A DNA stretch of 64,000 nt from a virus (Duplodnaviria; Heunggongvirae; Uroviricota; Caudoviricetes), in the IMG/VR virus record IMGVR_UViG_3300035670_000139; one strand, 5' to 3'. The first letter of the stretch is position 1. The number at the start of each line of letters is the position of its first letter. The notes below the pieces were generated by a model that ran no database searches, was not told the DNA's origin, and was given only the letters and a program-made list of their open reading frames with translations. Shown in pieces: positions 5,484-64,000 of this stretch. Position numbers and translations under genes: made by a program.

Positions 5484-7541
5484 ATGTCTGATAAAACTGC
5501 TGACGTGACACAACCAACTCAAGATGAGATTGTTAATTCTGTAGCTGCAATTACTAAAGAATCTGCAACTGCAATTGCTGGAGCGATTAAAGAAGTTCTT
5601 GATGTGGAAAAAACAAAACAAGAACTTGAAAAAGAAAAAGAAGAAATTGAAAAAGCAAAACAAGAACTTGCAGAAAAAGAAGCTGCAATTAAAAAAGCAG
5701 AGGAAGATAGAGCAAATGACATAGCTGCTGCAAAAAATTTAGAAACAAAAGGTGCTGGTGCTACTATTGCTGGTGGCGGAGAGTCAGTTGAGATTAATCC
5801 TATTTTACTATCTGCATTACAAGAAGCAGAAGAAGCTGAAAGAGTTTTTATTGCTGATTTAAATGAGGGTTCTGGTAATCAATTTTTTACAAAAGGAGCT
5901 AAACCATCTATTAAATCATTTTTTGCTAATATAACAGCAGATGGCACAATAGTAACAAAAGATAATATTAACGAAATTAACCAATATTTTCAACCAACAA
6001 AGATTGAAGACCTCAAAGAAATGAAACAATTTGTTGAAAAAAAAGAAAACAAATTAGAATATAAATCTGCATCTGATATAGCGTTTTTAAAAGCTAATAA
6101 AAATATTGATGTTGCTGTTCCAAGTCTTGAAATTACAAATTATAATTCTAAAGATGAAAATCATTTAGGAAAATATGTTTTACAACCAAAAATAGAGGTA
6201 AAATCTGATGGACTTACACCAAATGTCATGTCAACAAACAACTCTGTAGTTGCTTTATATAGAACACAAAGAAAAGTTGTATTGCCAGCATTACCAATAG
6301 ATGAATATAGTGATAGAAGTCCGTTATGGGATTTTATACCTGAAATAGAAATTGATAGAGTGAGTGGTGAAGACTTTGAGAGACCATTAACTGTTTCTTT
6401 GCAAGAACTTAGAAGAAAAAAAATTCCCTTTAATCAACCATCTTCAGATAAAACGGAATTTAGCGGATATAAATTTACAGCAATAGATACTGTATATGCT
6501 AAGGCAAATGAGACATTTCAATTAGCTAGAATTTATAATCTATGCTCTTTTACTCCAGATATTATTAGAAGAATGAGAGCAACTGGGACAATAGATCCAA
6601 AATTCAAAGAGGATATGAAACAAGAAATGACTATTGCATTAGACCAAAGAATGCGTAATAACATTTTATCACCTGGTAGAGTAATGGATTGGATAGAAAA
6701 CCCAGCATGGCAAAAATTATCTCAAGCACAAGTTCAAGGTATGTTTGCTCCTTATATTGGTTCTAAAGATGAACCATTTGATATATCAATGCCTTCATGG
6801 CAAAAAAATAGATACTTTAGGGAAGTTCAAGGTGGTCAAGATTTTGATGAATCTGGATACAATGTTACTGCAACTGGTGCAACTGGGCAAAATGTTTTCA
6901 ATCCAGAAACAGTAGGTCAGCAAGGAACCTTAGTAAATCCTAAAGATATTCCATGTATGTTTAATGATTTAGACCAATTATTAAGAGCTATTAAAAATTC
7001 TGTGCCAGAAATTTCTGCTAGCGTTATTGGACAAGGAATGCCTGTAATATTGTTACCAGAAACTCTTTTCAATCCTTTAATACTTAATCAAAAATATAAA
7101 CTGATTGGTAATGATGGTCAAAAAACAGTGTTTGGTGATGGTTATGGTAATTACACTAACAATATGTTGACTATTTTTATTACTTCTACATTAGGTTATA
7201 AATTTATAGGCATACCAGATAGATTCTTCCCAAATTGTTTTTATACTGCTAAAAATGAGAATGGGACAACTGAAGGGGTTGATAGTGGCAAAATACTTGC
7301 AGTTAGTGGTCGTATTTTAAGAAAAAATGCTGTATATGCTTATTTTGGTAATATGTCAAATTTAGGTTATATTGTTAAAAGCAAATACCCAACTAACTTA
7401 ATTAACCCAACTGAATCAGATTTGCAATGGCTAGACCCTGAAGATACATTGAAAGAGGTTAAAATATTTAGAATTGAAAAAGAATATCAATTTATACCTG
7501 GTGCAAGACAAAGAATATTCCAAATTAAAGCACCAGCATAA
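5484..7541 (+). CDS. Major capsid protein candidate (HK97-fold) with an N-terminal coiled-coil delta/scaffold domain
   Basis: Immediately follows the prohead protease. The N-terminal ~110 aa is a charged coiled coil (KTKQELEKEKEEIEKAKQELAEKEAAIKKAEE) followed by a Gly-rich linker, typical of MCP delta domains. 685 aa. Confidence 0.5.
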   Translation: MSDKTADVTQPTQDEIVNSVAAITKESATAIAGAIKEVLDVEKTKQELEKEKEEIEKAKQELAEKEAAIKKAEEDRANDIAAAKNLETKGAGATIAGGGESVEINPILLSALQEAEEAERVFIADLNEGSGNQFFTKGAKPSIKSFFANITADGTIVTKDNINEINQYFQPTKIEDLKEMKQFVEKKENKLEYKSASDIAFLKANKNIDVAVPSLEITNYNSKDENHLGKYVLQPKIEVKSDGLTPNVMSTNNSVVALYRTQRKVVLPALPIDEYSDRSPLWDFIPEIEIDRVSGEDFERPLTVSLQELRRKKIPFNQPSSDKTEFSGYKFTAIDTVYAKANETFQLARIYNLCSFTPDIIRRMRATGTIDPKFKEDMKQEMTIALDQRMRNNILSPGRVMDWIENPAWQKLSQAQVQGMFAPYIGSKDEPFDISMPSWQKNRYFREVQGGQDFDESGYNVTATGATGQNVFNPETVGQQGTLVNPKDIPCMFNDLDQLLRAIKNSVPEISASVIGQGMPVILLPETLFNPLILNQKYKLIGNDGQKTVFGDGYGNYTNNMLTIFITSTLGYKFIGIPDRFFPNCFYTAKNENGTTEGVDSGKILAVSGRILRKNAVYAYFGNMSNLGYIVKSKYPTNLINPTESDLQWLDPEDTLKEVKIFRIEKEYQFIPGARQRIFQIKAPA

Positions 7542-37723: not shown

Positions 37724-38251
37724 TTGATTATGCTTACTTTATTACTAGCAATATATGTATTTACTTTTGTCTATATTAAGCTTTTGCAAATAAAAAATCA
37801 AAAAGTTAATAGAACTTTACAAATAAAACAGGGAATTGAGAGTGCTTCTTTTAAAATTGGCAATTTGCTTCCGAGCGATGAAAATTATCAGCAAAAACTT
37901 TTTCAAATTGTAACGAAGGAGCTAAGTCCGTCTCTTGGCAGGTTTGCAATATTTTATCAACAAGGGATGCTAAACAAGGCTTTAGCATCACATATAGCAA
38001 GGTTTTTGTATAAGTCTTTATATATAGAGATATCGCATTTTGCAGTTTATAAAAAATTTGATTGGTATACTTTTGAAGAATGGACAAATATTCTTCACGA
38101 CGAAAACACAGATAAAGAGAAGCAAAAAAAATTTACAGAAGAACAAGAGGTTTTAAAAAAGAAAAAAGACGATTTTTTAAAAACAACCTTCCCAGACTTT
38201 TACGATATAATATGTGAATTGCGTAAAAAAAACAAAAAAGATTTTTTTTAA
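37724..38251 (+). CDS. Hypothetical membrane protein
   Basis: N-terminal TM helix (MIMLTLLLAIYVFTFVYI) and a charged C-terminus. Confidence 0.4.
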   Translation: MIMLTLLLAIYVFTFVYIKLLQIKNQKVNRTLQIKQGIESASFKIGNLLPSDENYQQKLFQIVTKELSPSLGRFAIFYQQGMLNKALASHIARFLYKSLYIEISHFAVYKKFDWYTFEEWTNILHDENTDKEKQKKFTEEQEVLKKKKDDFLKTTFPDFYDIICELRKKNKKDFF

Positions 38252-41393: not shown

Positions 41394-43187
41394 ATGTCAA
41401 AATATTATATAGATTATAATAGAAACAAAAATTTTACAACTTTTGGTTTAACAACTTTAAAAGATAGGTATCTAAGTTTGAAATCTAATACATCCAATGA
41501 AAAAGAAGACCCTCAAGAAATGTTTGCAAGAATAGCAAGTGCTTATGCAGATGACATAGAACATGAGGTTAGATTGTATAATTACATGTCTAATTTTTGG
41601 TTTATGCCAGCAACCCCTATTTTAACTAACGCAGGAACCACTAGGGGATTGCCAATATCTTGTTTTTTAAATGAAGTGCAAGATAATATTAATGGCATTG
41701 CAAAAACATACAATGAAAATATTTATTTAGCTTCAAGTGGTGGTGGAATTGGAACTAATTGGAGTAATGTTAGAGGTATTGGGGAGCAAATTGTCAATAA
41801 AGGTAATAGTTCTGGCATTATGCCGTTTTTAAAAGTAGCAGATTCAATGTCTTTAGCTATTAGTCAAGGTGGCATTAGAAGAGGTTCTTCTGCTCAATAT
41901 TTGCATATATCTCACCCTGAAATTGAAGAATTTATTGATGTAAGAAGACCAACTGGGGATAACAATAGAAGGTCTTTAAATATACATCATGGGATTGTAA
42001 TACCTGACGAGTTTATGCAAAAAGTAAAAAATGGTGAAATGTGGCAGTTAAAAAGCCCTAAAACTGGTAAAATTGTAAGCGAGGTGTCGGCACAAGAGTT
42101 GTGGATTAAAATACTTACTGCAAGGGTAGAAACTGGTGAGCCTTACTTATTATTTATTGATAATGTAAATAAATATACACCAGAACATCATAAAAAACTT
42201 GGGTTAAGTGTAAAAACAAGTAATCTTTGTAGTGAAATTACTTTGCCGACTGGTATAGACCATTTAGGTAAAGAAAGAACGGCAGTATGTTGTTTATCTT
42301 CAGTAAATTTAATACATTATAAAGATTGGGAAAATGATATAAACTTTATACCAGACATTATGCGTTTTTTAGATAATGTGTTAGAAGATTTTATTAATAA
42401 AGCACCAAATGAAATAGAAAGGGCAAAATATTCTGCAATGAGAGAACGAAGTGTTGGTTTAGGTGTAATGGGTTTTCATTCTTTTTTACAATCTCAAAAT
42501 GTGCCTTTTGAAGGAGTAATGGCTCAATCTTGGAATAAAAGAATATTTAAGCATTTAAAAACAGAATGTGACAAAATATCTAAAAAATTAGCAATTGAAA
42601 AAGGCTCTTGCCCTGATGCAAAAGATGCTGGTATTATAGAAAGATTTTCTTATAAAATTGCAATTGCCCCAACTGCAAATATTTCAAATATTTGTGGCGA
42701 GGCTAGTCCAGGTATAGAACCTTCAGCAGCAAATGTTTTTACACAAAAAACTCTTAGTGGATCATTTACTATTAAAAATAAATATTTACAAAATTTATTA
42801 CAATCTAAAGGATATAACACGGAAGAAATTTGGTCTAGTATTGCTACACAAGAAGGCTCTGTGCAGCATTTAGACTTTTTAACACCAATAGAAAAAGAGG
42901 TATTTAAAACTGCTTTTGAGTTAAATCAAGAATGGATAATAGAACATGCAGCAGATAGAACACCTTTTGTTTGTCAAGCTCAATCAGTAAATTTATTTTT
43001 ACTATCCGATGTATCTAAAAAAGTATTAAATGCAATACACTTTAATGCTTGGAAAAAAGGCGTTAAAAGTTTATATTATTGTCGCAGTAGGTCAAAACAA
43101 AGGGCAGATAAAGTAAGTCAAAAAATTACAACAAATAATTTGAATATCAATGAAAATAAATACGAAGAATGTTTAGCTTGCCAGTGA
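41394..43187 (+). CDS. Ribonucleotide reductase catalytic (alpha) subunit
   Basis: PATPILTNAGT, LPISCFLNEV, active-site SNLCSEI (N-x-C-x-E) and a C-terminal Cys pair (ECLACQ). 597 aa without an ATP cone. No beta subunit in the window, which is compatible with class II, but the class cannot be called from sequence alone. Confidence 0.85.
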   Translation: MSKYYIDYNRNKNFTTFGLTTLKDRYLSLKSNTSNEKEDPQEMFARIASAYADDIEHEVRLYNYMSNFWFMPATPILTNAGTTRGLPISCFLNEVQDNINGIAKTYNENIYLASSGGGIGTNWSNVRGIGEQIVNKGNSSGIMPFLKVADSMSLAISQGGIRRGSSAQYLHISHPEIEEFIDVRRPTGDNNRRSLNIHHGIVIPDEFMQKVKNGEMWQLKSPKTGKIVSEVSAQELWIKILTARVETGEPYLLFIDNVNKYTPEHHKKLGLSVKTSNLCSEITLPTGIDHLGKERTAVCCLSSVNLIHYKDWENDINFIPDIMRFLDNVLEDFINKAPNEIERAKYSAMRERSVGLGVMGFHSFLQSQNVPFEGVMAQSWNKRIFKHLKTECDKISKKLAIEKGSCPDAKDAGIIERFSYKIAIAPTANISNICGEASPGIEPSAANVFTQKTLSGSFTIKNKYLQNLLQSKGYNTEEIWSSIATQEGSVQHLDFLTPIEKEVFKTAFELNQEWIIEHAADRTPFVCQAQSVNLFLLSDVSKKVLNAIHFNAWKKGVKSLYYCRSRSKQRADKVSQKITTNNLNINENKYEECLACQ

Positions 43188-43289
43188 ATCACCCAACCGC
43201 TAAAGACGATGCGGTTTTACGGATTAGGAAATAAAGTGTGAATCACCCAACCGCTAAAGACGATTGGGCTTCAAGGTTCGTAGCTTTGT

Positions 43290-44450
43290 CTATTGACAAC
43301 AGCTCCCCTCGCTTTTAACGACCATTCCAGCCGCTATGTTTAGACCTTGTCGCAAAATATTTCTACTTGCAAGTAGGTCTCTGTTATGTGTTGTTTCACA
43401 ATTGTCACAAGTCCACTCTCTATCTTTTAAAGTTAGACTTTGATTAATTGTGCCACACACATCGCACATTCTACTTGATGGAAAAAATCTATCAATTATT
43501 ACTAATTGACGACCTTTCCATTTGCACTTATATTTAAGTTGTCGCTTAAATTCGTGCCAACTAACATCCGATATAGCTTGTGCCAATTTATGATTTTTAA
43601 TCATATTAGACACGGCTAAATCTTCCAAACAAATAATTTGGTTTTCATTACTTATTTGGTTTGTTATTTTGTGTAAATAATCTTTTCTGATATTAGAAAT
43701 TTTTAAATGGTATTTTGCAAGTTTTAATTGTCTTTTTTTTCTTATACCGCTACTTTTATTTGATTTACTTAATTGTCTTTGTAAATATTTAAGTTTTTTC
43801 ATTTTGCGTTTTAATGGTTTAATATTTTCATATACCACACCATTGGAGCAAGTTGCAAAATCTTTTATACCTAAATCAATACCTATTGCTTTTTGTAAGT
43901 TATCTAAAGTTTTAACTTCCTTTTCAACAATAATAGAAACATAATATTGATTATTACAATTTTTTGATATAGTAGCAACAACAAATTTGCCATCTAATTT
44001 TCTATGCTCTTTTACTTTTATGCCATTTTTAAACTTTGGAAAATATATTTTATTATTTTCTAGTTTAAAAAATTGCGGAATTGTAAAGCTCTGTTTGTTA
44101 TTTTTATTTTTAAATTTTGGAAATTGATGTGTTTTTCTAAAAAACATTTTGTAACTGCTATCAAGATGTTTTAAAGTTGCTTGTAAAGACTGTGCATTGC
44201 ATTCATTTAACCATTGAAATCCATCTTGTTTTTTTAGCTTGGTTAAATCTTTTGAGTTATCGTAGTAATTTAAACATCCTTTTATTCTTTTAGCTTCAAT
44301 GTTCTCTTTATTATTAATGTAATATTCTTTTCTTTGATTTAAAAAATAGTTCCAAACAAATCTACAACTGCCAAAGTGTTTTGCAAGTAATATTTTTTGC
44401 TCTGCGTTTGGATATATCCTAAACTTATAAGCCATATTTATTACTTGCAT
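43290..44450 (-). CDS. tnpB: TnpB (OMEGA RNA-guided nuclease, RuvC-like plus zinc finger)
   Basis: RuvC-I GIDLGIKDFATCSNG, zinc finger CDVCGTINQ...CDNCETT, and RuvC-III HNRDLLASRNI (D.NAA.NI-like). The catalytic residues appear intact. Confidence 0.85.
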   Translation of the reverse strand: MQVINMAYKFRIYPNAEQKILLAKHFGSCRFVWNYFLNQRKEYYINNKENIEAKRIKGCLNYYDNSKDLTKLKKQDGFQWLNECNAQSLQATLKHLDSSYKMFFRKTHQFPKFKNKNNKQSFTIPQFFKLENNKIYFPKFKNGIKVKEHRKLDGKFVVATISKNCNNQYYVSIIVEKEVKTLDNLQKAIGIDLGIKDFATCSNGVVYENIKPLKRKMKKLKYLQRQLSKSNKSSGIRKKRQLKLAKYHLKISNIRKDYLHKITNQISNENQIICLEDLAVSNMIKNHKLAQAISDVSWHEFKRQLKYKCKWKGRQLVIIDRFFPSSRMCDVCGTINQSLTLKDREWTCDNCETTHNRDLLASRNILRQGLNIAAGMVVKSEGSCCQ

Positions 44451-44500
44451 TTTGTTTTATTATCAATACTATACTATAATTGTAATTTGTATAATTTAAA

Positions 44501-44902
44501 ATGTCAAGTAATATTTCAAAAAATCGTAAAAAATATTTATTAAAAATACATTTAATTTTTGCGTGCAAATATCGTAAAAAATTATTAATTAATCCAATTG
44601 ATAAAGATATTAAGCAGATTATGCTAATAATATCTTCAATATCAGATTTTAAGATTGATATAATGGAAACTGATCAAGACCATATACATCTTTTACTTAA
44701 TATATCACCAAATTATTCAATTAGCAGTATAGTTAATCGTTTAAAATCTATTTCAACAAATATGATATGGAAAAAACATCACAATCTGTTAGTAAAACAT
44801 TTTTGGAAAGAAAAAACATTTTGGAGTGATGGATATTTTGTTAATTCTATTGGCAATGCAAACTTGGAAACAGTAAGACATTATATTGAAAATCAAGGTT
44901 AA
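44501..44902 (+). CDS. tnpA: IS200/IS605 HuH tyrosine transposase TnpA
   Basis: HuH motif HIHLLL and a catalytic Tyr in WSDGYFVNSIG. 133 aa. Confidence 0.9.
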   Translation: MSSNISKNRKKYLLKIHLIFACKYRKKLLINPIDKDIKQIMLIISSISDFKIDIMETDQDHIHLLLNISPNYSISSIVNRLKSISTNMIWKKHHNLLVKHFWKEKTFWSDGYFVNSIGNANLETVRHYIENQG

Positions 44903-45002
44903 AATCCTTACATCCGCACCGCTAAAGACGATGAGGTTTTACGGATTAGGATATAAATATAGTGTTTGAACTACCAAAGAAATTTTGGTAGTTAAATGAA
45001 TA

Positions 45003-47636: not shown

Positions 47637-47897
47637 ATGGACACCAAGACGATAAACAATCGATGGAGATATCGTAGACGGATAGCAATCACATCCGCTA
47701 TCTTTTTGTTTTTACTTGAGATTGTTGCTATTGCTAAATTAATATCTTTGCCTTTTGACAAACTTACAATGGAGCATGTGATTTTCTTTGTTATAGCAAC
47801 AATACCACTTCTTGCTATTGTATTAGTTTATTTCATTGCATCAACTTTTGATGATGTTAAGGTGTTTTTGATTGATAGATTAAAACACAAAGATTAA
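47637..47897 (+). CDS. Small membrane protein
   Basis: 86 aa with two TM helices. Confidence 0.4.
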   Translation: MDTKTINNRWRYRRRIAITSAIFLFLLEIVAIAKLISLPFDKLTMEHVIFFVIATIPLLAIVLVYFIASTFDDVKVFLIDRLKHKD

Positions 47898-49000
47898 CTA
47901 TGGGCAGCTTTGTATAACATATCGTAGTGGTCTTCAAAAAAAGCATCCTTACCCATTTTTAAAGCATCCCAAGCTTCAATCCACTCAACACTACTTGCAT
48001 CATCTCCAGCTTTTACTGCATTAATATCATAGTCTTTTGGTAATAATGTAGTATAGAGTGTTGTAATTACTCTACCACGACGACTACGATTTGGGTTGTC
48101 AAAATTGCAGAATAACCGCACATGTAGACGATCAGCTATAACTAACCCAGTCTCTTCTTTTAACTCACGCAAAGCACATTCTTTTAATGTTTCATTTTGA
48201 TTAACAAACCCACCTGGTAAAGCATAAAGTCCTTTGCCAGGTGTTTTACCCCTTTTAATTAATAATACTTTACATTCGTAATTATGGTATTGAAATACTG
48301 CAATATCAGCAGTGTGCTCTATGCGAGGATATTGCTTAACTTCTTCTTGATAGTTTGCATAATAGACATCGTCCTCAGTAATTAAACCTGCCTCAATGTA
48401 TTTTTTTTGCATTTCAAGATAGTCATTCATAGAAAGCCAAAAACAAATGTATTTTTTTTGCATTTCAAGGTAATCATCCATAGAAAACCAAAACCACGAG
48501 TATTGTTTAAAAACTGGCGTATTTGTAAAAAATTCTTTTCTTTTATCTTTTGCACTTATCACTTTACCATTTTCTAAATACGGCTCAACTTCAATCACAT
48601 TATCAAAGATTTTAGCATCTTTAATTAAGTCAATATAATTTGCTGTTTTATCATCTTTTTTGCAAGTAATTAAGTTAATTTGACTATCTTTATTGTTGTT
48701 TTTTATATCTTGTATTGTGTTTTTAATGCAATTTATCCATTCTGCGTCAGTGTCGCAATCTTGAACTGGTAATATTTCTTTTACCTTATTTGTTGGCCAT
48801 AAGCATTTACACAAAATTTTAATGTCTAACTCGTGTTTTCGCTCTTCAAAAGTAAATGGATTGCAAACATCTCTTGATTTATCAGCCGAACCAACTAAGA
48901 TATAAACTTCACTATAATTTTCACAAGCTTTTGCTATTAAAGCTAAATGCCCCTCGTGAACTAATTGAAATCTACCTAAAACGACATTAATAATTTTCAT
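47894..49000 (-). CDS. natV: Bifunctional NMN adenylyltransferase / Nudix hydrolase (NatV-like)
   Basis: N-terminal H-x-G-H nucleotidyltransferase motif (GRFQLVHEGHLAL). C-terminal Nudix box GKGLYALPGGFVNQNETLKECALRELKEETGL. A 17-aa in-frame tandem duplication lies in the linker (48397-48498). Confidence 0.8.
   Translation of the reverse strand: MKIINVVLGRFQLVHEGHLALIAKACENYSEVYILVGSADKSRDVCNPFTFEERKHELDIKILCKCLWPTNKVKEILPVQDCDTDAEWINCIKNTIQDIKNNNKDSQINLITCKKDDKTANYIDLIKDAKIFDNVIEVEPYLENGKVISAKDKRKEFFTNTPVFKQYSWFWFSMDDYLEMQKKYICFWLSMNDYLEMQKKYIEAGLITEDDVYYANYQEEVKQYPRIEHTADIAVFQYHNYECKVLLIKRGKTPGKGLYALPGGFVNQNETLKECALRELKEETGLVIADRLHVRLFCNFDNPNRSRRGRVITTLYTTLLPKDYDINAVKAGDDASSVEWIEAWDALKMGKDAFFEDHYDMLYKAAHS
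48397..48498 (-). repeat. 51-bp x2 in-frame tandem duplication inside natV
   Basis: atgtattttttttgcatttcaag[a/g]ta[g/a]tcat[t/c]catagaaa[g/a]ccaaaa.. repeated, encoding FSMDDYLEMQKKYICFW / LSMNDYLEMQKKYIEAG. Confidence 0.85.
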
Positions 49001-49028
49001 AGTTAAACAAAAAAATAAAAATAAAAAA

Positions 49029-50027
49029 CTATTCTAAAATATTTCGCATTGCAACGTTAATTGCATCACTGCGTAATATTTGTTGTAAATATTCCCGTTT
49101 ATCTGATTGTAAATATTCACACATCATTTTATATCCTGCACCTTCTAAACCATAAGTCTTTACTGGTTTAAACAATGAAAAATCATAACCCATATCGTGC
49201 ATTTTTAATATATTTAAAAGATTTTCCGAGTTTTGTTTAAAAATACTTTTCCATAATACTCTATTTGATTGACACAATCTAAATAAATTTTTTTGCAAAT
49301 ATTCGTGTTCTACCCAGTCTTGTGATATTTGCTGTAGGGCATTATTTAATTCAGTATCGTGTTCTTTATTAATTATATCATTTAATGCAAAACAAAATAA
49401 TTGTGGAAAGTGTGAAGTCCAAGCAACAATTTTATCGTGCAGTTTAAGTGTATCACAGGTTGAAGGTTGTATTGTAATTTGTGCATTTTCAACAATATCT
49501 TGCCACATTATAATCATTAAACAATATGGCATATAACAATATAAGCGGTCTATATTATTATATTTTGTAAAAATAACTGTATTCCCCCCTTTATGTAAAT
49601 CTGCTTTACTATTTATAAAACCTGTTTTTTCGCTACCTGCCATAATATGAACGGATGTAAAATTATTATTATCACACCATTTTGATATCCAATTTTTTAC
49701 TGAACTTACATCGCATACATGTAATGCTAAAGTAAATATTTGTAATTCAAACTCAAGATGTATTCTTACATTATCACTTGGAGGTGTTGCAACAATTGCA
49801 ATATCAAATAAATTTTCTTGAAAATCTGCAGGATTGTATTGTTTTGGCTCAATATCAATGCTTCTACAATAATTAATAAAACTTTCCATATTGTCTTCAG
49901 ACATATATGGGTCGTAAATTGTTACATCATAAACACGCTCACCTTCTTGATGTATTTCTGTTAATCTTTTAAAAATAGAGCCTCCAATTAAACCAATTCC
50001 AATAATTAAAACTTTTTGCATAATCAA
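49029..50027 (-). CDS. Prephenate/arogenate dehydrogenase (TyrA)-family NAD(P)-binding protein
   Basis: N-terminal Rossmann motif VLIIGIGLIGGSI. TyrA core motifs HIMAGSEKTG (HPMAGSE.sG) and LHDKIVAWTSHFPQL (HD..vA.vSHLPH). Confidence 0.55.
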   Translation of the reverse strand: MIMQKVLIIGIGLIGGSIFKRLTEIHQEGERVYDVTIYDPYMSEDNMESFINYCRSIDIEPKQYNPADFQENLFDIAIVATPPSDNVRIHLEFELQIFTLALHVCDVSSVKNWISKWCDNNNFTSVHIMAGSEKTGFINSKADLHKGGNTVIFTKYNNIDRLYCYMPYCLMIIMWQDIVENAQITIQPSTCDTLKLHDKIVAWTSHFPQLFCFALNDIINKEHDTELNNALQQISQDWVEHEYLQKNLFRLCQSNRVLWKSIFKQNSENLLNILKMHDMGYDFSLFKPVKTYGLEGAGYKMMCEYLQSDKREYLQQILRSDAINVAMRNILE

Positions 50028-50043
50028 AAATAAAAATAAAAAA

Positions 50044-51309
50044 TTAAATCAATATTCCGTCTTTTGCAGAGTAGACTAAATCCATTTTAGAAGTGTCAAT
50101 CCTTCCTTTAATAGATTTTTTACCGCTATCGGTAATCGGGTCTTTGTAGACATCTTGCCAAACTTCTTTTCCGTCTATATTCAGACAAATTGCAGATGTT
50201 TTATAAGCAAATTTTAAAGTATCCCTACTGCAATTTTGCATTAAATCACCACCAGAGCCAAAGACAAAATTAGCAGGTGAAAACATTTTATCAGTAAAGT
50301 GTTGTAAAATATTTTCTATTTGCTTTGCGGTAATACCATCTCCCCAAAGAATACGATATTTTTTAAATAATTTGTAACCTTTGTCATTTGTAGTAAATTG
50401 CACTTTATTTTTATCAAAAATTTCTAACATTTTTGTAATAACTTCAATAGGGTTGCCACTGTCAGGTCTAATAACCCAAATCGGATAAGAATTACTTTCA
50501 ATTCTATCTTTCATGGAACCTGATGTTTGAAAATCTGTTGCTTTGTAAATATCATAGCTATCAGATACACAAGCGACAATAGAATAACTTTTAAATGTTT
50601 CTAATAAATTTTCCATTGCTTTAAATTCATTTTCCCTGCCCCAGCTCGTAATAGTTGAATGCTCCGATGCAGGAACGGAAAAGCCAGTTTTTGCATGTAA
50701 GACTGCATTAAAGTTATCAGTCCCTTTAAATTGAGTTAAATGAGCCATGCCACCTATTTTAGCACTTTCAACACTACTTGAACCTCTATCTCCAAAGTTG
50801 TGATAAGCAAAATCAACCCCAGCCACATCCTCGCCAGCTTTTTGATAAAAAGATGTTATCATTTGTTTAATGTAATAACATCTTGTTGCTATTGTAGTCG
50901 GATACCAAAGTTTCAACAAGTAAGTTTCTAAAAAAGAAGGCAACCAAAAATAGTTGTTATCGGTATTTTCTACAACAAGCAAAGGTTGTGAAATGTCGTG
51001 TAATTCATTTTCTTTTACCGCATATATATTGATAGGTAAATGTATATGTCCTTTTTTATTTTGTAAATTCAAACCATCAAAACCTTCTTTGTTATATGGT
51101 AAGCCATGTTGCTCTACAAGTTTTTGCCAATCTATTAGTCCATTTTGATATGTATTTAAACCATATAAATGTTCTTTTAAACCAGTAAAAAACACTTTTT
51201 TGAAGCCTTCGTCTGAGCCTCTGGCGGAAAGATAACAATGTATTTTTTTTGTGTTTTTAGGGTATTGTAAATAATGTGAAAATTTGTAAGAGTCCGTTAA
51301 GTGTAGCAT
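50044..51309 (-). CDS. nadV: Nicotinamide phosphoribosyltransferase (NAMPT/NadV)
   Basis: N-terminal LHLTDSYKFSHYLQYPKNTKKIHCYLSARGS matches NAMPT (NTDSYK.tHy.QYP). 421 aa. Confidence 0.8.
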   Translation of the reverse strand: MLHLTDSYKFSHYLQYPKNTKKIHCYLSARGSDEGFKKVFFTGLKEHLYGLNTYQNGLIDWQKLVEQHGLPYNKEGFDGLNLQNKKGHIHLPINIYAVKENELHDISQPLLVVENTDNNYFWLPSFLETYLLKLWYPTTIATRCYYIKQMITSFYQKAGEDVAGVDFAYHNFGDRGSSSVESAKIGGMAHLTQFKGTDNFNAVLHAKTGFSVPASEHSTITSWGRENEFKAMENLLETFKSYSIVACVSDSYDIYKATDFQTSGSMKDRIESNSYPIWVIRPDSGNPIEVITKMLEIFDKNKVQFTTNDKGYKLFKKYRILWGDGITAKQIENILQHFTDKMFSPANFVFGSGGDLMQNCSRDTLKFAYKTSAICLNIDGKEVWQDVYKDPITDSGKKSIKGRIDTSKMDLVYSAKDGILI

Positions 51310-51326: not shown

Positions 51327-52124
51327 TTACAAAGCATTATTAAAAATATCAAAACAATCAATAACTTGCAACTTCTCGTTATCTTGCGGTTCAAGAATAC
51401 TTGTTGAGTTTGTTGTGATAATTTTGTTGATATTGTTACATATTTTTTGCATTTTATATCCATAAATTTCATTATCATACATTCTATCTATTTTTGATGG
51501 TCGTATTGTTTTAATTAAAAATCTTTTCGGAACAAAACAATGCAACACAAACACATTCACCTCCTCAACTCCGTATTTTTCTTTCAACTCTTTGGCGATT
51601 TGATTTGCTTTTTGAAGCTCGGATTGTGTGCCGTGATGGAGGAAGATTGTAAGTTTTGTAAAATCTTCTATTCCAGTGCAATCCGAAGAAGTGCAAACTA
51701 ATTTATTACAACGATGTTCTATTTTAGGATAAACAAATACACGAGAATAATCTATAGTATTTGTTAATTTGTCCGTGTAATATGTTTCGCAATCCTCACT
51801 ACTCAAAAACAAAACCGCATTATCCTCAGGGATATATTTTGAAAGGTTGGGAGTTATGTCGTCTAAAGTATAAATATTTTCAAACGATGGTAAAAAATCA
51901 ACTGCAGCAACATTTGGAAAGTAAGGTAAATATAGATTACAAAATTCAGTATAAGGATATAATTGTAAAAATGGAGTTATATCTAAAAATGGATTTAGTT
52001 CCCCAACCTTCAAATCAATATACAAATCTTTTGCATTTGTAAAATCAAAAGCCTTAGTGCATTCCTTGTCTTTAAAAAACTCAACTTCTAAAAGCTCATT
52101 GCGTTTGTGGTATATTTTTTGCAT
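51327..52124 (-). CDS. Paralog family A, copy 1 (unknown function; conserved C-terminal ITTNSTSILEPQ..KLQVIDCFDIF module)
   Basis: 265 aa. N-terminus MQKIYHKRNELLEVEF matches copy 2. The final ~97 bp is ~96% identical to a segment in copy 2. Confidence 0.55.
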   Translation of the reverse strand: MQKIYHKRNELLEVEFFKDKECTKAFDFTNAKDLYIDLKVGELNPFLDITPFLQLYPYTEFCNLYLPYFPNVAAVDFLPSFENIYTLDDITPNLSKYIPEDNAVLFLSSEDCETYYTDKLTNTIDYSRVFVYPKIEHRCNKLVCTSSDCTGIEDFTKLTIFLHHGTQSELQKANQIAKELKEKYGVEEVNVFVLHCFVPKRFLIKTIRPSKIDRMYDNEIYGYKMQKICNNINKIITTNSTSILEPQDNEKLQVIDCFDIFNNAL

Positions 52125-52130
52125 ATAATA

Positions 52131-52547
52131 CTATAAATAAGTTTTGATAATTTCATTAATATCATTCTCTGTTATTACTCCACCAGTTTTTACTCTAATT
52201 CTTAAATTTCGCAAAACAGCAGAGTAGTTATATGGTAAAGCAATAAGGCTATTAGCTAAAACTTCACTATATTTTCCACCATATAATTTGTTATCATATT
52301 CCGATTGCCACACTTTTGCTATTTCTCGTAATCCATCCAAGCATCTCTTAATTTCAAACACTTCTGGCAAGTCTTCATCGTTTTCCGTTATAATAGAAAT
52401 CAACTCAGATATTCTATCTAAAAAAGGACACACCACATAAAGTTCATTTTTACTATTTCTAATTTTAAGCGGTGGAACATTTTTCTTTTTTGTCATATAA
52501 TAATTAAGAAATTTCTGTAAAAGTTTCATATAAAGATAACGCCCCAA
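52131..52547 (-). CDS. Paralog family B, copy 1 (unknown function)
   Basis: 138 aa. The N-terminal YMKLLQKFLNYY is shared with the ORF at 53697-54011. Confidence 0.45.
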   Translation of the reverse strand: MGRYLYMKLLQKFLNYYMTKKKNVPPLKIRNSKNELYVVCPFLDRISELISIITENDEDLPEVFEIKRCLDGLREIAKVWQSEYDNKLYGGKYSEVLANSLIALPYNYSAVLRNLRIRVKTGGVITENDINEIIKTYL

Positions 52548-52674
52548 TAAAAAACTGTGCTGCTGTTAAATTGCGAGTTTTTAAAATATTATGATATTTT
52601 TCCGCAACCTTTTTTGTCAAATGCAAAACTAACATTTCCTCACCTTCTTCTAGGTCTATTTTAGTTATATCCAT
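52504..52674 (-). CDS. Possible small ORF between A2 and B1 (internal Met start)
   Basis: Track ORF 52504-52734 starts inside A2 on duplicated DNA. The internal Met (MDITKIDLEEGEEMLVLHL...) gives a 56-aa product. Uncertain. Confidence 0.2.
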   Translation of the reverse strand: MDITKIDLEEGEEMLVLHLTKKVAEKYHNILKTRNLTAAQFFIGALSLYETFTEIS

Positions 52675-52697
52675 ATTATGCCAAACAAAAATAATAA

Positions 52698-52890
52698 AAT
52701 TACAAAGCATCATTAAAAACATCAAAACAATCAATCACCTGCAACCTCTCGGTATTTTTAGGTTTAAGAAGTCCTGTTGAGTTAGTTGTTATGAAAGCAT
52801 CATTAAAAATATCAAAACAATCAATAACTTGCAACTTCTCGTTATCTTGCGGTTCAAGAATACTTGTTGAGTTTGTTGTTATGATTTTGT
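52698..52890 (-). repeat. ~96-bp tandem duplication of the A-family 3' coding end (third copy at 51326-51428)
   Basis: 52794-52890 is ~96% identical to 51326-51428, and 52698-52795 is a more diverged copy. Together they encode IITTNSTSILEPQDNEKLQVIDCFDIFNDA / FITTNSTGLLKPKNTERLQVIDCFDVFNDAL. Confidence 0.85.
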
Positions 52891-53662
52891 CAAAAGGCAA
52901 TTTTGATATATACTCTTTTTGTCTTTTTGTAAAATCTTCTTTAAAACTTTTTTCACTACCTACAATGATACCAATATCAATACAAAATTTGTATGCCTCA
53001 TCTGCTGACTTAGAATACATTTCGTTAGCAAAAGACATATAACTTTGTTCCAAATCACTTTCTTCTAAAAAACAGTGTAATCTAAACAAATTTACTTCTT
53101 TAACTCCGTATTTTTCTTTCAACTCTTTGGCAACTTCATTTGCTTTTTGAAGTTCAGCTTGTGTGCCATGATGGAGGAAGATGGTTACTTTATTAATAGG
53201 ATTTTTTACAAACTCATTAATAGCATCAATACTTCCTTTAAGTGTTACTTCATCAAGCCCATCATTAGCATAAAGTCCAATATAATGACCTTGAAAACAT
53301 TGCATATATCTTTCACAGTTCTCACCACTCAAAAACAAAACTGCATTATCCTCAGGGATGTATTTTGATAAATTAAATTTATATCCAGTCTCGTCACATT
53401 GTATATCATTTAAAGTTATTAAAAGAATTTTTGAATTAAAGTTATCTTTATATCCTAAATACCAACATGGAGTGTATATTACTGCACTTAAATCTAAAGC
53501 AAAAAGTTTATTACTTAAAGCTATAGCTGGAGTGCAATCCCCATCCTTCAACTCAATATACAAATCTTTTACATCCGTAAAATCAAAAGGGATTTTGCAG
53601 TCTTTATCTTGGTAAAACTCAACTTCTAAAAGCTCGTTGCGTTTGTGGTATATTTTTTGCAT
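52700..53662 (-). CDS. Paralog family A, copy 2 (320 aa; C-terminal module duplicated in tandem)
   Basis: Shares the N-terminus, the PEDNAVLFLS[SG]E[DN]CE motif, TIFLHHGTQ[SA]ELQKAN[QE][IV]AKELKEKYGV and the C-terminal module with copy 1. Confidence 0.55.
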   Translation of the reverse strand: MQKIYHKRNELLEVEFYQDKDCKIPFDFTDVKDLYIELKDGDCTPAIALSNKLFALDLSAVIYTPCWYLGYKDNFNSKILLITLNDIQCDETGYKFNLSKYIPEDNAVLFLSGENCERYMQCFQGHYIGLYANDGLDEVTLKGSIDAINEFVKNPINKVTIFLHHGTQAELQKANEVAKELKEKYGVKEVNLFRLHCFLEESDLEQSYMSFANEMYSKSADEAYKFCIDIGIIVGSEKSFKEDFTKRQKEYISKLPFDKIITTNSTSILEPQDNEKLQVIDCFDIFNDAFITTNSTGLLKPKNTERLQVIDCFDVFNDAL

Positions 53663-53696
53663 ATAATAATTAAGAATTTAGTATTTTTAATATTTT

Positions 53697-60594: not shown

Positions 60595-61155
60595 TTACTT
60601 CGCAAATATAAGATATATTTTTGAATAATAATTTTTAATGCTTTTTTTAATTTTTAATAATTTCTTAGATAACGGTTCTTTGTAATAATTTTTAACAAAA
60701 TGCCAAATCAACGGATATGTTTCTTTTACAAATTTACCACAAATTTTAATATCAATATCTTCTAAGGTTTTAATGTTATCAGTATTTGAAATTTTTAAGT
60801 GTTCTTTTGCAAAAGTTGTGATACATCCATCATATATCTTTTTTACAAACAGAGATTCTATTGTCTTTAATCTTGTATCTTGTAATGTTTTAAATAAATA
60901 TACCATAACAGTTTTGTCAATTAAATTTGCTTTTGATAAAAAGCCTATTTCGTCAATTCTTTGCCAAAATTTATATATTTCTTTGTTTAATTCATAAAGA
61001 TTATCGGCTTTAGTTTTTTCATCCAGTTCTTTAAGTTCACTAATTTTACAAAGAGGTATAATATTAGCTAAAATGTTCTCAATATCGTGTTTAATTTTAA
61101 TGGACTCCTTTACAATCAAGTCTTTTCTTGAAAATGGTGTAGATGTTTGATACAT
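60595..61155 (-). CDS. Hypothetical protein downstream of the Panacea-domain gene (candidate toxin partner)
   Basis: 186-aa ORF, 35 nt downstream of the DUF4065 gene on the same strand. Confidence 0.4.
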   Translation of the reverse strand: MYQTSTPFSRKDLIVKESIKIKHDIENILANIIPLCKISELKELDEKTKADNLYELNKEIYKFWQRIDEIGFLSKANLIDKTVMVYLFKTLQDTRLKTIESLFVKKIYDGCITTFAKEHLKISNTDNIKTLEDIDIKICGKFVKETYPLIWHFVKNYYKEPLSKKLLKIKKSIKNYYSKIYLIFAK

Positions 61156-61190
61156 ATTTAGATTGATTAATTTTGAAATTAATTAAAATC

Positions 61191-61862
61191 TTACAAATGA
61201 TTTGTTGTTTTGTCAAGATTTAATTGCAACTCAAGATATTTAGTAATGTATTTTTTACGGATTTCTTCTGCTTTTGCGTAAATCTTGTCTATATCAAGAC
61301 CAAACAAATCTTCTTTTTTCAACTTATCAAAATAGCCTTTTATTAAAAAACTTTCAATTTTACATCCAAAAGTATTGTATTTATCGCAGACAAATTTCCA
61401 AGGTGAGCCATCTTGATGCGACCAATTACTTAATTCTAAAGCTTTTTTCTTTGGAATGTTGCTGGCAATAAACTCTTGCAAGATGTACTTCATTATCTCC
61501 TCATCTCTTTGCCTGGATATACTCTTGCCTTCTTTTACTTCGTAAAATGGTTTGTAGTTCACGCTAAAAGCTTCGGTAGTTAATTGAGAATAGTTTTGGT
61601 AAATATTTTTAAAAACAGGTCCATATGGCCAAGCTTCAGGTAGTTCGTCAAACAGAGATAGAACAACTTTTCCTTCATTGTTTAACACCGATGTTTTTGG
61701 TATCATGTCAACCTTTAAAGCAACTCCCATTACTATATACATTATTTTTTGCAATTTTGTGTTGCTAAGCTCAACATTTTTACCTTTTGGTGTATTTTCA
61801 TTACCAATATTGTATATATCCATCAAAAAAATTAGGTCTTTTGCTACATCTACGGCTTTCAT
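61191..61862 (-). CDS. Panacea-domain (DUF4065, SocA/PanA-like) antitoxin-type protein
   Basis: TKLQKIMYIVMGVALK...LFDELPEAWPYGPVFKNIYQNY matches the DUF4065 signature (KLQKLLYy..g.....lf.e.feAW.yGPVvp.vY). Confidence 0.55.
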   Translation of the reverse strand: MKAVDVAKDLIFLMDIYNIGNENTPKGKNVELSNTKLQKIMYIVMGVALKVDMIPKTSVLNNEGKVVLSLFDELPEAWPYGPVFKNIYQNYSQLTTEAFSVNYKPFYEVKEGKSISRQRDEEIMKYILQEFIASNIPKKKALELSNWSHQDGSPWKFVCDKYNTFGCKIESFLIKGYFDKLKKEDLFGLDIDKIYAKAEEIRKKYITKYLELQLNLDKTTNHL

Positions 61863-61991
61863 AGTATTTTACTAAGATTTACTTGTATTTTTCTCCGTTA
61901 CATTCCCAGTCCTAAACCCAAACGGCGGATGTGCCTGACCTGCAAAGGTAAAAAACTGTCTATAAATAACCATAAAAAACTATAAAAAAAC

Positions 61992-62020
61992 TTGACATTT
62001 ATAATTTTTCCATATACAAT
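61992..62020 (+). promoter_or_regulatory. Sigma70-like promoter: TTGACA, 17-nt spacer, TACAAT
   Basis: aaacTTGACAtttataatttttccataTACAAT, 30 nt upstream of the IS607-type tnpA. Confidence 0.5.
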
Positions 62021-62050
62021 TTATTTATTAAGATTTGATTATTTAAAAAT

Positions 62051-62644
62051 ATGGAATTAGTAACAATATCAAAAGCAAAAAAACTACTTGGAGTAACACC
62101 TCAAACAATGCGTAATTGGGATAAAAATGGCAAGATAAAGCCAGTTAAAAGAGCTAAAAATGGTTTTCGCTATTATAATCTATTAGATATACAAAATTTA
62201 GTAAAGCCAAAAAATAAAATGATTATAGGCTATTGTCGTGTATCTTCTAAAAAACAAGAAGATGATTTATGCAGACAAATTGAAAATGTAAAAACATTTA
62301 TGATAGCTAAAGGATATAGTTTTGAAATAATACAGGATATAGGCTCTGGAATTAACTATACTAAAAATGGCTTAAATGAATTAATCACTAAAGTTATTAA
62401 TGGTAATGTTGAGAAAGTTGTTATATTATATAAAGACAGATTGCTGCGTTTTGGATTTGAATTATTAGAAAGCATATTTCAAAAATATAATTGTAAAATT
62501 GAAATTATTGATAATACAGAAAAAACAGAGGAACAAGAATTAGTTGAGGATTTAATACAAATTGTGACAGTTTTTTCTTGTAAATTACAAGGCAAAAGAA
62601 GCAAAAAAACAAAAGCATTAATTAACGAGTTAAAAAATGATTAA
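62051..62644 (+). CDS. tnpA: IS607-type serine recombinase transposase (MerR-like HTH plus resolvase catalytic domain)
   Basis: N-terminal MerR-type HTH (AKKLLGVTPQTMRNWDKNGKIKP..NGFRYY), then catalytic IIGYCRVSSKKQEDDL (Y-x-R-V-S-x-x-x-Q). 197 aa. Confidence 0.8.
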   Translation: MELVTISKAKKLLGVTPQTMRNWDKNGKIKPVKRAKNGFRYYNLLDIQNLVKPKNKMIIGYCRVSSKKQEDDLCRQIENVKTFMIAKGYSFEIIQDIGSGINYTKNGLNELITKVINGNVEKVVILYKDRLLRFGFELLESIFQKYNCKIEIIDNTEKTEEQELVEDLIQIVTVFSCKLQGKRSKKTKALINELKND

Positions 62645-63869
62645 ATCCTTCAAAGTTCGTCTTGAACCAAACAATAAACAAAAATCTTTGTTGTTTGCAA
62701 ATGCAAGTGTTGCAAGATTTGCATACAATTGGACTTTAGAACAACAGCAACTCAATTACAAGAATGGTGGTAAGTTTATTAGTCATTTTGATTTACGCAA
62801 AAAATTAACCCAATTAAAACAAAAAGAACTAAGCTGGCTATACAACTATGATGTTGATATTGTAAAACAAGCAGTAAAAGATGCTTGCGATAGTTATATT
62901 AAATTCTTTAATAAAGGCTTTGGATTTCCAAGATTTAAAAGTAAAAGATTTTCAAAACCTAGTTTTTTTGTTGATAATTATAAAATCAAAATCTTTGAAA
63001 ATAGCATTAAAATTCCAAAACTTAAGTCAAACATAAAATTAAGTGAAAATGGATATATCCCATTGAATGTAAAATATTCTAACCCAAGAATTACTTTTGA
63101 TGGAGTAAATTGGTTTTTATCTGTTGGAGTTGATATTGAAAATGAAATACAAGAACTCACAAATGAAACACTTGGAATTGATGTAGGTTTAAAAGATGCT
63201 TTAATTAGAAGTGATGGAATTATACATAAAAATATCAATAAAACTAAAAAAATTAAAACATTAAGAAAAAAACATAATAAACTTAAAAAATCAATTAGTA
63301 GAAAATATGAAAGAAACAAAATTGGTAAAAAATTTATCAAAACTCAAAATATTAAAAAAGCTGAGTTAAAATCAAATAAACTTTACAAAAAGTTAAACGA
63401 TATACAAACTGACTATTTCAACAAAGTAGCCATTTCAATTGCGAGAACCAAGCCAAAAAAGATTGTTATGGAAAAGTTGAATATTGATGGGATGCGAAAG
63501 AATAAATGTCTTTCAAAAGCCTTTCAAGAAGCTAGTTTGCATAAATTCAAAACTAAAATTCAAAATAAATGTTTGGAGTTTGGGATTGAATTTATTGAGG
63601 CTGGAACATTTTTTCCATCCTCAAAAAGATGTAGTCATTGTGGAGCAATTAAAAAAGACTTGAAATTAAAAGATAGAGTTTTTAAATGCGATACATGCGA
63701 CTTTCAAATAGACAGGGACGAAAACGCAAGTCAAAATCTCAAACAATACCCTGAGTTACAGGGGAATTTAAGCCTTTGGAGTGCTAAATCAAAAGAAAGT
63801 AGTCGCAAGACAAAATCTGGCACCGAGAAGAAGGAAAAAAGCAAAAAACTTAATAGAGTAGCAATATGA
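62637..63869 (+). CDS. tnpB: TnpB (OMEGA RNA-guided nuclease)
   Basis: RuvC-I GIDVGLKDALIRSDG, zinc finger CSHCGAIKK...CDTCDFQ, and RuvC-III DRDENASQNL. 410 aa. Start overlaps tnpA by 8 nt. Confidence 0.85.
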   Translation: MIKSFKVRLEPNNKQKSLLFANASVARFAYNWTLEQQQLNYKNGGKFISHFDLRKKLTQLKQKELSWLYNYDVDIVKQAVKDACDSYIKFFNKGFGFPRFKSKRFSKPSFFVDNYKIKIFENSIKIPKLKSNIKLSENGYIPLNVKYSNPRITFDGVNWFLSVGVDIENEIQELTNETLGIDVGLKDALIRSDGIIHKNINKTKKIKTLRKKHNKLKKSISRKYERNKIGKKFIKTQNIKKAELKSNKLYKKLNDIQTDYFNKVAISIARTKPKKIVMEKLNIDGMRKNKCLSKAFQEASLHKFKTKIQNKCLEFGIEFIEAGTFFPSSKRCSHCGAIKKDLKLKDRVFKCDTCDFQIDRDENASQNLKQYPELQGNLSLWSAKSKESSRKTKSGTEKKEKSKKLNRVAI

Positions 63870-64000
63870 TGTTAGGTTTTTGTAAGTCTTTTATAACGGT
63901 ATACGGATTGCTTGATGTGTAAATCACCTCATGGTTTGTAACGCTTGGCTTTGGCAATATGTATGAATCTATTGAATGTTTTTTCTCTTGTGTTGCAATT

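Follow-up and report, generated by a model that had tools for sequence, protein, structure and literature searches.

A probably autonomous IS607-family insertion sequence with a predicted TnpB guide RNA in an uncultured phage

The DNA analysed here is a stretch of 64,000 nucleotides (nt) from a virus of the class Caudoviricetes (IMG/VR record IMGVR_UViG_3300035670_000139; hereafter the window). We consider it highly probable (roughly 0.88) that positions 61947-63899 represent an intact, autonomous IS607-family insertion sequence (IS) residing in a phage genome, with a serine-recombinase transposase (TnpA), a predicted RNA-guided nuclease (TnpB) and a guide RNA (reRNA or omegaRNA) whose interplay would follow the mechanism known from the family. 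A first-pass annotation of the same DNA, made from the letters alone, had described a second, IS607-type element in this phage region, unrelated to another TnpB-bearing element of the window. This description holds, given that the two TnpB proteins share only 32% identity and that the window encodes a terminase, a head protease, a tail sheath, a baseplate J protein, a tail collar, fibre repeats and a lysozyme. The replicon hosting the element is a phage, uncultured and myovirus-like.

The boundaries were set by comparison with metagenome contigs (labelled L001-L037, of which L006 and L011 are Logan contigs). The exact TnpB protein is encoded by seven public contigs from at least six samples. 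In six fetched contigs (L001-L006), window positions 61946-63899, i.e. 1954 base pairs (bp), recur by blastn with 0 mismatches and 100% identity; the DNA comparison covers these six, the seventh contig being matched by its TnpB protein only. Outside this segment, the sequences of the identical copies are unrelated and fall into at least three flank contexts. Among the copies at the second site described below, the wider surroundings differ as well (terminase, S-adenosylmethionine (SAM) synthetase, PAAR/gp25 or methyltransferase), so that the carriers are distinct, mosaic relatives, and since the element is far more conserved than its carriers and occurs at several sites, the comparison indicates that it moved recently.

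Contig L011 (SRR10854513) presents the precise empty site that the first-pass annotation had proposed to look for in related phages. It reads CTGCAAAGG|TATACGGATT (over a longer stretch, ...CCTGACCTGCAAAGG|TATACGGATTGCTTGATGTGTAAATCAC) and follows the neighbouring SocA-like gene. The filled site CAAA-GG-[TAAAAA...ATAAC-GG]-TATACG corresponds to CAAA-GG-TATACG in the empty allele, so that a GG stands at both junctions, a single GG remains in the empty site, a target duplication is absent and the net insertion amounts to 1951 bp plus one GG. A GG at the junctions without target duplication is the defining junction of the IS607 family (PMC10690162; PMC6188088), for which scarless excision at a GG core is known as well (PMC10690162). 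The right end, for which an extension of the contig beyond 64000 had been suggested, was found at 63899 from the identical copies and the empty site without such an extension. We infer the mobility of the element, by TnpA-mediated excision and integration, from its identity across at least three contexts and from the empty allele. The insertion point is an intergenic GG between two minus-strand genes, 84 nt upstream of the SocA-like gene's start codon (gene at 61191-61862) and 31 nt downstream of the codon at which the preceding gene stops. The ends lack long terminal inverted repeats; the left end and the reverse-complemented right end share short A-rich motifs only, and the AACTG/AACAG motif of the left end is kept in the alignment of left ends of relatives. 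The predicted circle junction of the excised element, left end joined to right end, would be TTATAACGGTAAAAAACTG, i.e. TTATAACGG|TAAAAAACTG. The coordinates of the features are collected in the table.

Table. Positions of the IS607-family element, its predicted parts and a second, unoccupied insertion site in the window.
Feature	Position	Strand	Description
Whole IS607-family element	61947..63899	+	GG core at both junctions (GG 61947-61948, GG 63898-63899)
Left junction CAAAGG	61942..61948	+	Candidate target-adjacent motif (A-GG) including the shared GG core; filled and empty sites
Left end	61949..62050	+	A-rich subterminal repeats CTATAAATAA, CCATAAAAAA, CTATAAAAAAA; AACTG/AACAG 5-6 nt past GG
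Promoter, sigma-70-type (predicted)	61992..62020	+	Inside the left end; TTGACA, 17-nt spacer, TACAAT; 11/12 positions match
tnpA	62051..62644	+	197 amino acids (aa); serine recombinase with N-terminal MerR-type helix-turn-helix and C-terminal catalytic domain
tnpB	62637..63869	+	410 aa; predicted RNA-guided nuclease with RuvC triad and zinc finger
Guide-RNA (reRNA/omegaRNA) scaffold (predicted)	63736..63899	+	5' hairpin 63749-63763, RAGATH-18 core 63773-63836, 63-nt 3' part ending AACGG
Guide/target, 20 nt (predicted)	63900..63919	+	TATACGGATTGCTTGATGTG, directly past the right end; flanking phage DNA, contains TACGGATT
Site B, unoccupied homologue of the second insertion site	38128..38141	+	Inside an open reading frame (ORF) at 37724-38251 (175 aa)

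Both proteins of the element look complete. TnpA matches Pfam MerR (residues 5-42) and Resolvase (residues 58-189) and reaches 214.5 bits against the NCBIfam equivalog transpos_IS607 (cut-off 110); its PDB matches are catalytic domains from TnpA proteins of the IS607 family (3lhk, 3ilx, 6dgc, 6dgb; E 1e-34 to 1e-12), and the catalytic-serine motif YCRVSS begins at residue 61. This agrees with the MerR-type serine recombinase overlapping tnpB that had been proposed at first, the overlap being 8 nt long (ATGATTAA). TnpB contains all three Pfam TnpB domains and scores 242.5 bits against NCBIfam guided_TnpB. The catalytic triad is intact, as initially described, and consists of D182 (in GIDVGLKD), E279 (in VMEKL) and D361 (in DRDENAS), which align with D194/E290/D371 of ISFba1 and D191/E278/D361 of ISDra2, and the zinc finger is made up of two CxxC pairs, CSHC (332) and CDTC (351). 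The best PDB match is the ISFba1 TnpB (8iaz, E 1.2e-63). RNA-guided double-strand cleavage by this protein is thus predicted from its motifs and from the mechanism of the family. The putative promoter, also described previously, is the best promoter-like match of the region, and its TTGAC box is kept in L012, L013, L016, L022, L030, L033 and L037, which carry relatives 72-87% identical.

The RAGATH-18 RNA (Rfam RF03064), which forms the guide RNA core of IS607 TnpBs (PMC11061315), was found on the plus strand at the 3' end of tnpB with 63.9 bits (gathering score 44.9), and in 12 of 12 relatives scanned it either follows the 3' end of tnpB closely or lies within it. A comparison of the 3' flanks of both TnpB genes with guide-RNA models, as suggested earlier, was therefore productive for the IS607 element, whereas Rfam gave no match in the region of the IS605 element described below. 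The consensus fold of 10 relatives comprises the 5' hairpin, the RAGATH-18 core and a long-range 3' stem, with compensatory changes in 18 of 33 pairs; AACGG is terminal in every scaffold sequence and the bases after it vary. In ISFba1, the reRNA consists of a 37-nt 5' part, a 73-nt RAGATH-18 core and a 64-nt 3' part followed by the guide (PMC11061315). Here, 63 nt separate the end of RAGATH-18 from the right end, compared with 64 nt in ISFba1, and the guide is predicted to start at that point. By the mechanism of the family, TATACGGATTGCTTGATGTG would serve as the guide; in L011, the empty allele, it is preceded by AAAGG. As a separate observation, the guide-RNA scaffold, RAGATH-18 included, also encodes the last ~40 residues of TnpB (63747-63869), which extend past the portion alignable to solved TnpBs, and the same read-through tail is kept in the close 410-aa relatives examined (e.g. 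L014).

An A precedes the GG in 8 of 10 independent left junctions of the clade, and a C precedes it in all right ends examined. A-GG (target) versus C-GG (self) may therefore be the rule by which the nuclease tells an unoccupied site from its own copy, with A-GG as a candidate target-adjacent motif (TAM). If so, the contrast would constitute a simple self/non-self rule that can be tested in vitro.

Taken together with the family's mechanism, these features would lead to the following course of events. TnpA would excise the element scarlessly and reinsert it at GG sites. A transcript through tnpB would provide the scaffold that is bound by TnpB, with a 3' tail copying the flank TATACGGATTGCTTGATGTG, and the complex would cut genomes in which the site is unoccupied, i.e. 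AAAGG followed by TATACGGATTGCTTGATGTG, the occupied copy being spared because the right end reads AACGG. In a phage setting, the genome to be cut would be that of a sister or a co-infecting phage, and recombinational repair would copy the element and possibly neighbouring markers.

A rival reading is that the element and the phage were joined by assembly, with a bacterial IS607 misassembled onto a phage contig. The position of the element at the very end of the window and the fact that several assemblies break at it would be in line with such a chimera, but L006, an independent Logan contig, runs through the two junctions with 100% identity, L009 and L010 carry and thereby back the left junction, the same IS stands beside phage genes in the seven contigs from at least six samples, no close bacterial copy was found among 185,579 species-representative genomes and the empty allele matches both flanks exactly. 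We regard a chimeric junction as extremely improbable.

The filled and empty alleles have the same sequence as far as 61950 (AGGTA) and once more starting at 63898 (GGTATAC...). With the k-mer length of the Logan assembly, which we take to be 31, the breakpoints expected of a graph that contains the two alleles are exactly 61950, 61950-29 and 63898+29. Among the contigs of SRR11566350, L010 stops at 61950 and L006 covers exactly 61921-63927; L011, from SRR10854513, ends at 63927 too, and the overlap observed between Logan contigs is 30 nt. The match of these breakpoints suggests that filled and empty alleles coexist in SRR11566350.

A second insertion site was revealed by blastn of L001-L005 against the window. 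The identical element in L001, L002, L004 and L005 lies at a place that maps to window positions 38084-38141 (site B), where the insertion occurred at GA|GG|AG and the removal of the element restores the reading frame ...TQEEQEV.... The left flank is 86% and the right flank 97-98% identical to the window, and the 1954-bp element shows no mismatch. At this site the window itself reads GAA GAA (Glu-Glu) instead of GAG|GAG as in the IS-bearing phages, so that the GG core is gone through two synonymous differences; the GG-less site could be due to chance divergence or could be a resistant allele. L003 has the element and the left flank in common with L001, L002, L004 and L005, and its right flank differs; the same pattern is seen for L033/L036 in comparison with L034/L035. 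This suggests recombination between IS copies, or an IS position at the boundaries of phage genome modules.

A more speculative reading of these observations is that the element acts as an RNA-guided gene drive in a natural phage population, in which TnpB and its reRNA would cut empty AAAGG/TATACGGATT sites at co-infection and repair would copy the element and perhaps adjacent markers. A gene drive would explain why a 100% identical IS is found in phages whose flanks differ by 2-14%, why filled and empty alleles coexist and why copies have one flank in common and the other not. We consider this possible but less likely than not, and clearly less probable than the presence of an autonomous element as such. 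If true, it would be the first natural case of 'non-restorative homing' of a transposon between viruses.

Several points weigh against the reading of the locus as a working, autonomous IS607 element with a TnpB-reRNA mechanism. The expression of TnpB, the guide RNA and the cleavage are predictions here. The two sites of the identical copies are AAAGG and AGAGG, neither of which equals AGGAG or GAGGG, the published TAMs of this TnpB family (PMC11061315), and two of the four TAM-contacting residues of ISFba1 are changed (K80 to D, N122 to Y), K83 and N121 being kept. Homing between co-infecting phages has been shown for no TnpB, and a review from 2026 treats such spread to co-infecting phages, termed 'non-restorative homing', as theoretical (PMC13565253). 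The coexistence of alleles was read from contig end-points and not from reads, and the view of the locus ends at 64000. An exact-pattern scan of IMG/VR with the 3' flank to reach past this position gave nothing, searches for the exact proteins of the neighbouring genes led only to contigs breaking at the IS607, and a 23-aa minus-strand ORF fragment at the end of the window had no match in the fetched loci. A third TnpB gene past 64000 was considered and rejected: the Logan contig ends at 63927 are explained by the filled/empty junctions at k = 31, and the 23-aa C-terminal fragment is unlike TnpB.

A different view of the two nucleases is that the phage has domesticated one or both TnpBs, for example to cut host DNA or competing phages, or as a regulator that is nuclease-dead like TldR, instead of carrying them as selfish cargo. 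Two RNA-guided nucleases in one phage, a clade seemingly limited to phage-like contigs and the existence of phage-encoded TnpB derivatives with host-directed guides (TldR; PMC10705468) would fit this view. However, the RuvC triad is intact, which sets the protein apart from TldR; with its intact TnpA, its ends bounded by GG and its identical copies at several sites, the element bears the marks of a free transposon; the guide is the local flank and differs at each site; and the insertion at site B breaks a phage ORF, which is a cost and not a benefit. We therefore judge domestication to be improbable. The question raised by the first-pass annotation, whether TnpB is used by the phage for homing or for competition between phages, can be answered in part: homing is a known function of TnpB (PMC10690162) and fits the filled and empty alleles, but a benefit for the phage is unsupported. 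With a delimited element, an empty allele, a second delimited site in sister phages and public read sets that apparently contain both alleles, the locus represents a natural test case, and these samples would allow direct measures of allele frequencies, excision circles and the co-conversion of flanks.

The other TnpB of the window is encoded on the minus strand at 43290-44450 beside a Y1-type TnpA (44501-44902) and belongs to an IS605-type element. Judged by their sequences, the two elements are independent. The boundaries of the IS605 element are approximate, because only distant relatives and no unoccupied neighbour contig are available: relatives in IMG/VR are only 39% identical, an exact match to the IS605 end motif was not found there, and every contig with the neighbouring ribonucleotide reductase or dUTPase genes has the IS605 element at the same place.

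A pair of motifs in the 3' flank of the IS607 tnpB (63902-63928) had been likened to the right end of this IS605 element (43218-43247), with related ends or capture from a common sequence as explanations. The strings do exist (TACGGATT at 63902 and GTGTAAATCACC at 63917; TACGGATT at 43218 and GTGTGAATCACC at 43236), but their likeness is statistically marginal and is not accompanied by a hairpin. Out of 1000 shuffles, as few as 1 or as many as 236 score as well, according to the scheme used, and blastn-short detected no further similarity between the 3' flank and the IS605 end. Since the motif lies past the right end at 63899 and is present in the empty allele L011, it is phage DNA older than the insertion; it overlaps the predicted 20-nt guide or target and is missing from the right flanks of the other copies and of relatives, where unrelated sequence is found. 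The motif is therefore not an end of the IS607, and these comparisons speak against related ends of the IS607 and IS605 elements.

What could still link the two places is a shared neighbourhood instead of shared ends: positions 63900-63930 might stem from an IS200/IS605-type relative of the element at 43184-44960, either as its decayed end or as a miniature derivative, in or beside which the IS607 landed. TACGGATT and GTGTRAATCACC occur at both places in equal order, on the same strand and with similar spacing, the 12-mer has just two occurrences in the window, gapped alignment with permissive scoring reaches z = 3.85 against shuffles, and the right end of the IS605 has an extra 54-bp tandem end-like unit, which means that miniature derivatives exist in this genome. 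Under stricter scoring, however, 236 of 1000 shuffles do equally well, and 41 of 2904 real 101-nt segments of the window (1.4%) score at least as high against the IS605 ends. In addition, the site reconstructed at the 3' flank has no IS605-type hairpin, its folding being no more stable than that of shuffles (z +0.57 and +0.20 for the two strands), in contrast to z -2.75 for the true IS605 end (43180-43270), and the absence of more similarity by blastn-short applies here as well. A decayed IS605 relic is thus unlikely, and the autonomous IS607 element remains our preferred reading.

Two related candidates were rejected. Targeting of the IS605 end by the IS607 guide was considered, as ~9 of the first 10 guide positions match there, but the adjacent sequence is GCGGT and not A-GG. 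TGTAAATCAC also turns up in L014, in its right flank, but this 10-mer was judged to recur by chance. Regarding the IS605 element itself, its right-end region (43184-43264) contains the 54-bp end-like unit and, after it, part of a second copy (GTGAATCACCCAACCGCTAAAGACGAT twice), an arrangement that looks like a miniature element inserted past the right end. The two IS605 ends (43184-43264 region; 44918-44957) have a 40-nt stretch in common at 95% identity. Moreover, the Logan assemblies of two samples break at 44947, and the adjoining contig of SRR10854513 begins at 44918 with a 30-nt overlap (44918-44947), which hints that the IS605 is polymorphic at its tnpA-proximal end; no break is seen at the other.

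The phage of the window is very divergent: neither megablast of 61000-64000 nor tblastn of the terminase gave a match in a phage database of 50,697 records, and relatives of TnpB and of the SocA-like gene were not found in IMG/VR. Close relatives of TnpB, 73-89% identical over all 410 aa, fall into a few small clusters and sit among phage-type genes (ThyX, NinG, ERF, KilA-N, methyltransferases). No close bacterial or archaeal copy was present in 185,579 species-representative genomes, the best being 72% identical, and a bacterial origin of this IS607 copy is not evident from these searches. By tblastn, 376 of the 50,697 phage records contain TnpB homologues, with 575 places in total and two each in several Staphylococcus myoviruses (Silviavirus); IS607 elements in viruses have been noted earlier (PMC10690162). 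Two TnpB elements in one phage, initially called unusual, are thus uncommon but not unprecedented.

Among the relatives, derivatives of the element were observed. L016 contains two miniature IS607 derivatives (2916-3102 and 4989-5175) without tnpA and tnpB, in which both ends (the right one with AACGG) and the RAGATH-18 guide-RNA scaffold are retained; a full copy is nearby, and a 54-bp tandem array is located at L016 positions 5586-6015. L030, L031 and L032, whose TnpB is 89% identical, carry a tnpB-only derivative in which element positions 63-687 including tnpA are deleted and both ends are kept, in another phage-like setting (ThyX, NinG, DNA polymerase III beta).

With respect to mechanism, the element offers nothing new on IS607, TnpB or RAGATH-18 and is an ordinary member of a known family. 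It resembles the ISFba1/RAGATH-18 systems of IS607 TnpBs (PMC11061315; 8iaz) in the full-length TnpB match, the D/E/D triad, the zinc finger, RAGATH-18 at the 3' end of tnpB, the 5' hairpin, the 3' scaffold of ~63 nt, the start of the guide and the serine-recombinase TnpA. In contrast, about half of the TnpB residues differ, tnpB reads through RAGATH-18 here (410 aa) whereas the ISFba1 RNA begins 13 nt past the gene, the natural sites are AAAGG/AGAGG compared with AGGAG/GAGGG for the ISFba1 type, with K80 and N122 replaced, and the source is a freshwater-type metagenomic phage instead of a gut Firmicute. With IS607/IS1535 and CboIStron (PMC6188088; PMC10690162) it has in common a TnpA with N-terminal helix-turn-helix and C-terminal serine-recombinase domain, the lack of terminal inverted repeats and target duplication, the GG core, the scarless empty site and a downstream tnpB with a guide RNA across the right end. 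Unlike CboIStron, it has no group I intron and is therefore not an IStron, an A and not TG precedes the GG (TGGG in Cbo), and the replicon is a phage.

The TnpBs of cultured phages, namely Staphylococcus phage Twort, the Silviavirus phages Romulus and Remus and the Bacillus phages IEBH, 250 and LY4, are ~50% identical over 90% of the length, a comparison made by the TnpB protein alone, and some of these genomes have two places; the IS607 described here is seen in natural populations with an empty allele and with identical copies at several positions. The predicted outcome is also the same as for the free-standing and intron-borne homing endonucleases of T-even phages such as SegF and I-TevI, by which an allele without the element is cut in a co-infecting genome and the element is copied into it by repair, with possible co-conversion of flanks. 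In contrast to these enzymes, recognition is proposed to occur via an RNA guide and a TAM and not by protein, and the IS607 would also reach new sites via TnpA, whereupon its target changes automatically.

Some neighbouring genes deserve mention. The minus-strand region 60595-61862 beside the IS607 contains the SocA-like gene, which weakly matches the SocA/Panacea antitoxin domain (26.0 bits, cut-off 25.7), followed by a 186-aa ORF without family match; the two may form a Panacea-type toxin-antitoxin pair. Further away, the minus strand of 47894-51309 encodes NAMPT, a prephenate-dehydrogenase-like protein in the middle, and a CTP_transf_like nucleotidyltransferase with NUDIX domain; NAMPT and the nucleotidyltransferase/NUDIX gene look like a salvage pair for nicotinamide adenine dinucleotide. 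Finally, adjacent genes at 51331-53668 are diverged tandem paralogues, with ~600 bp at 68% identity and short segments at 85-97%.

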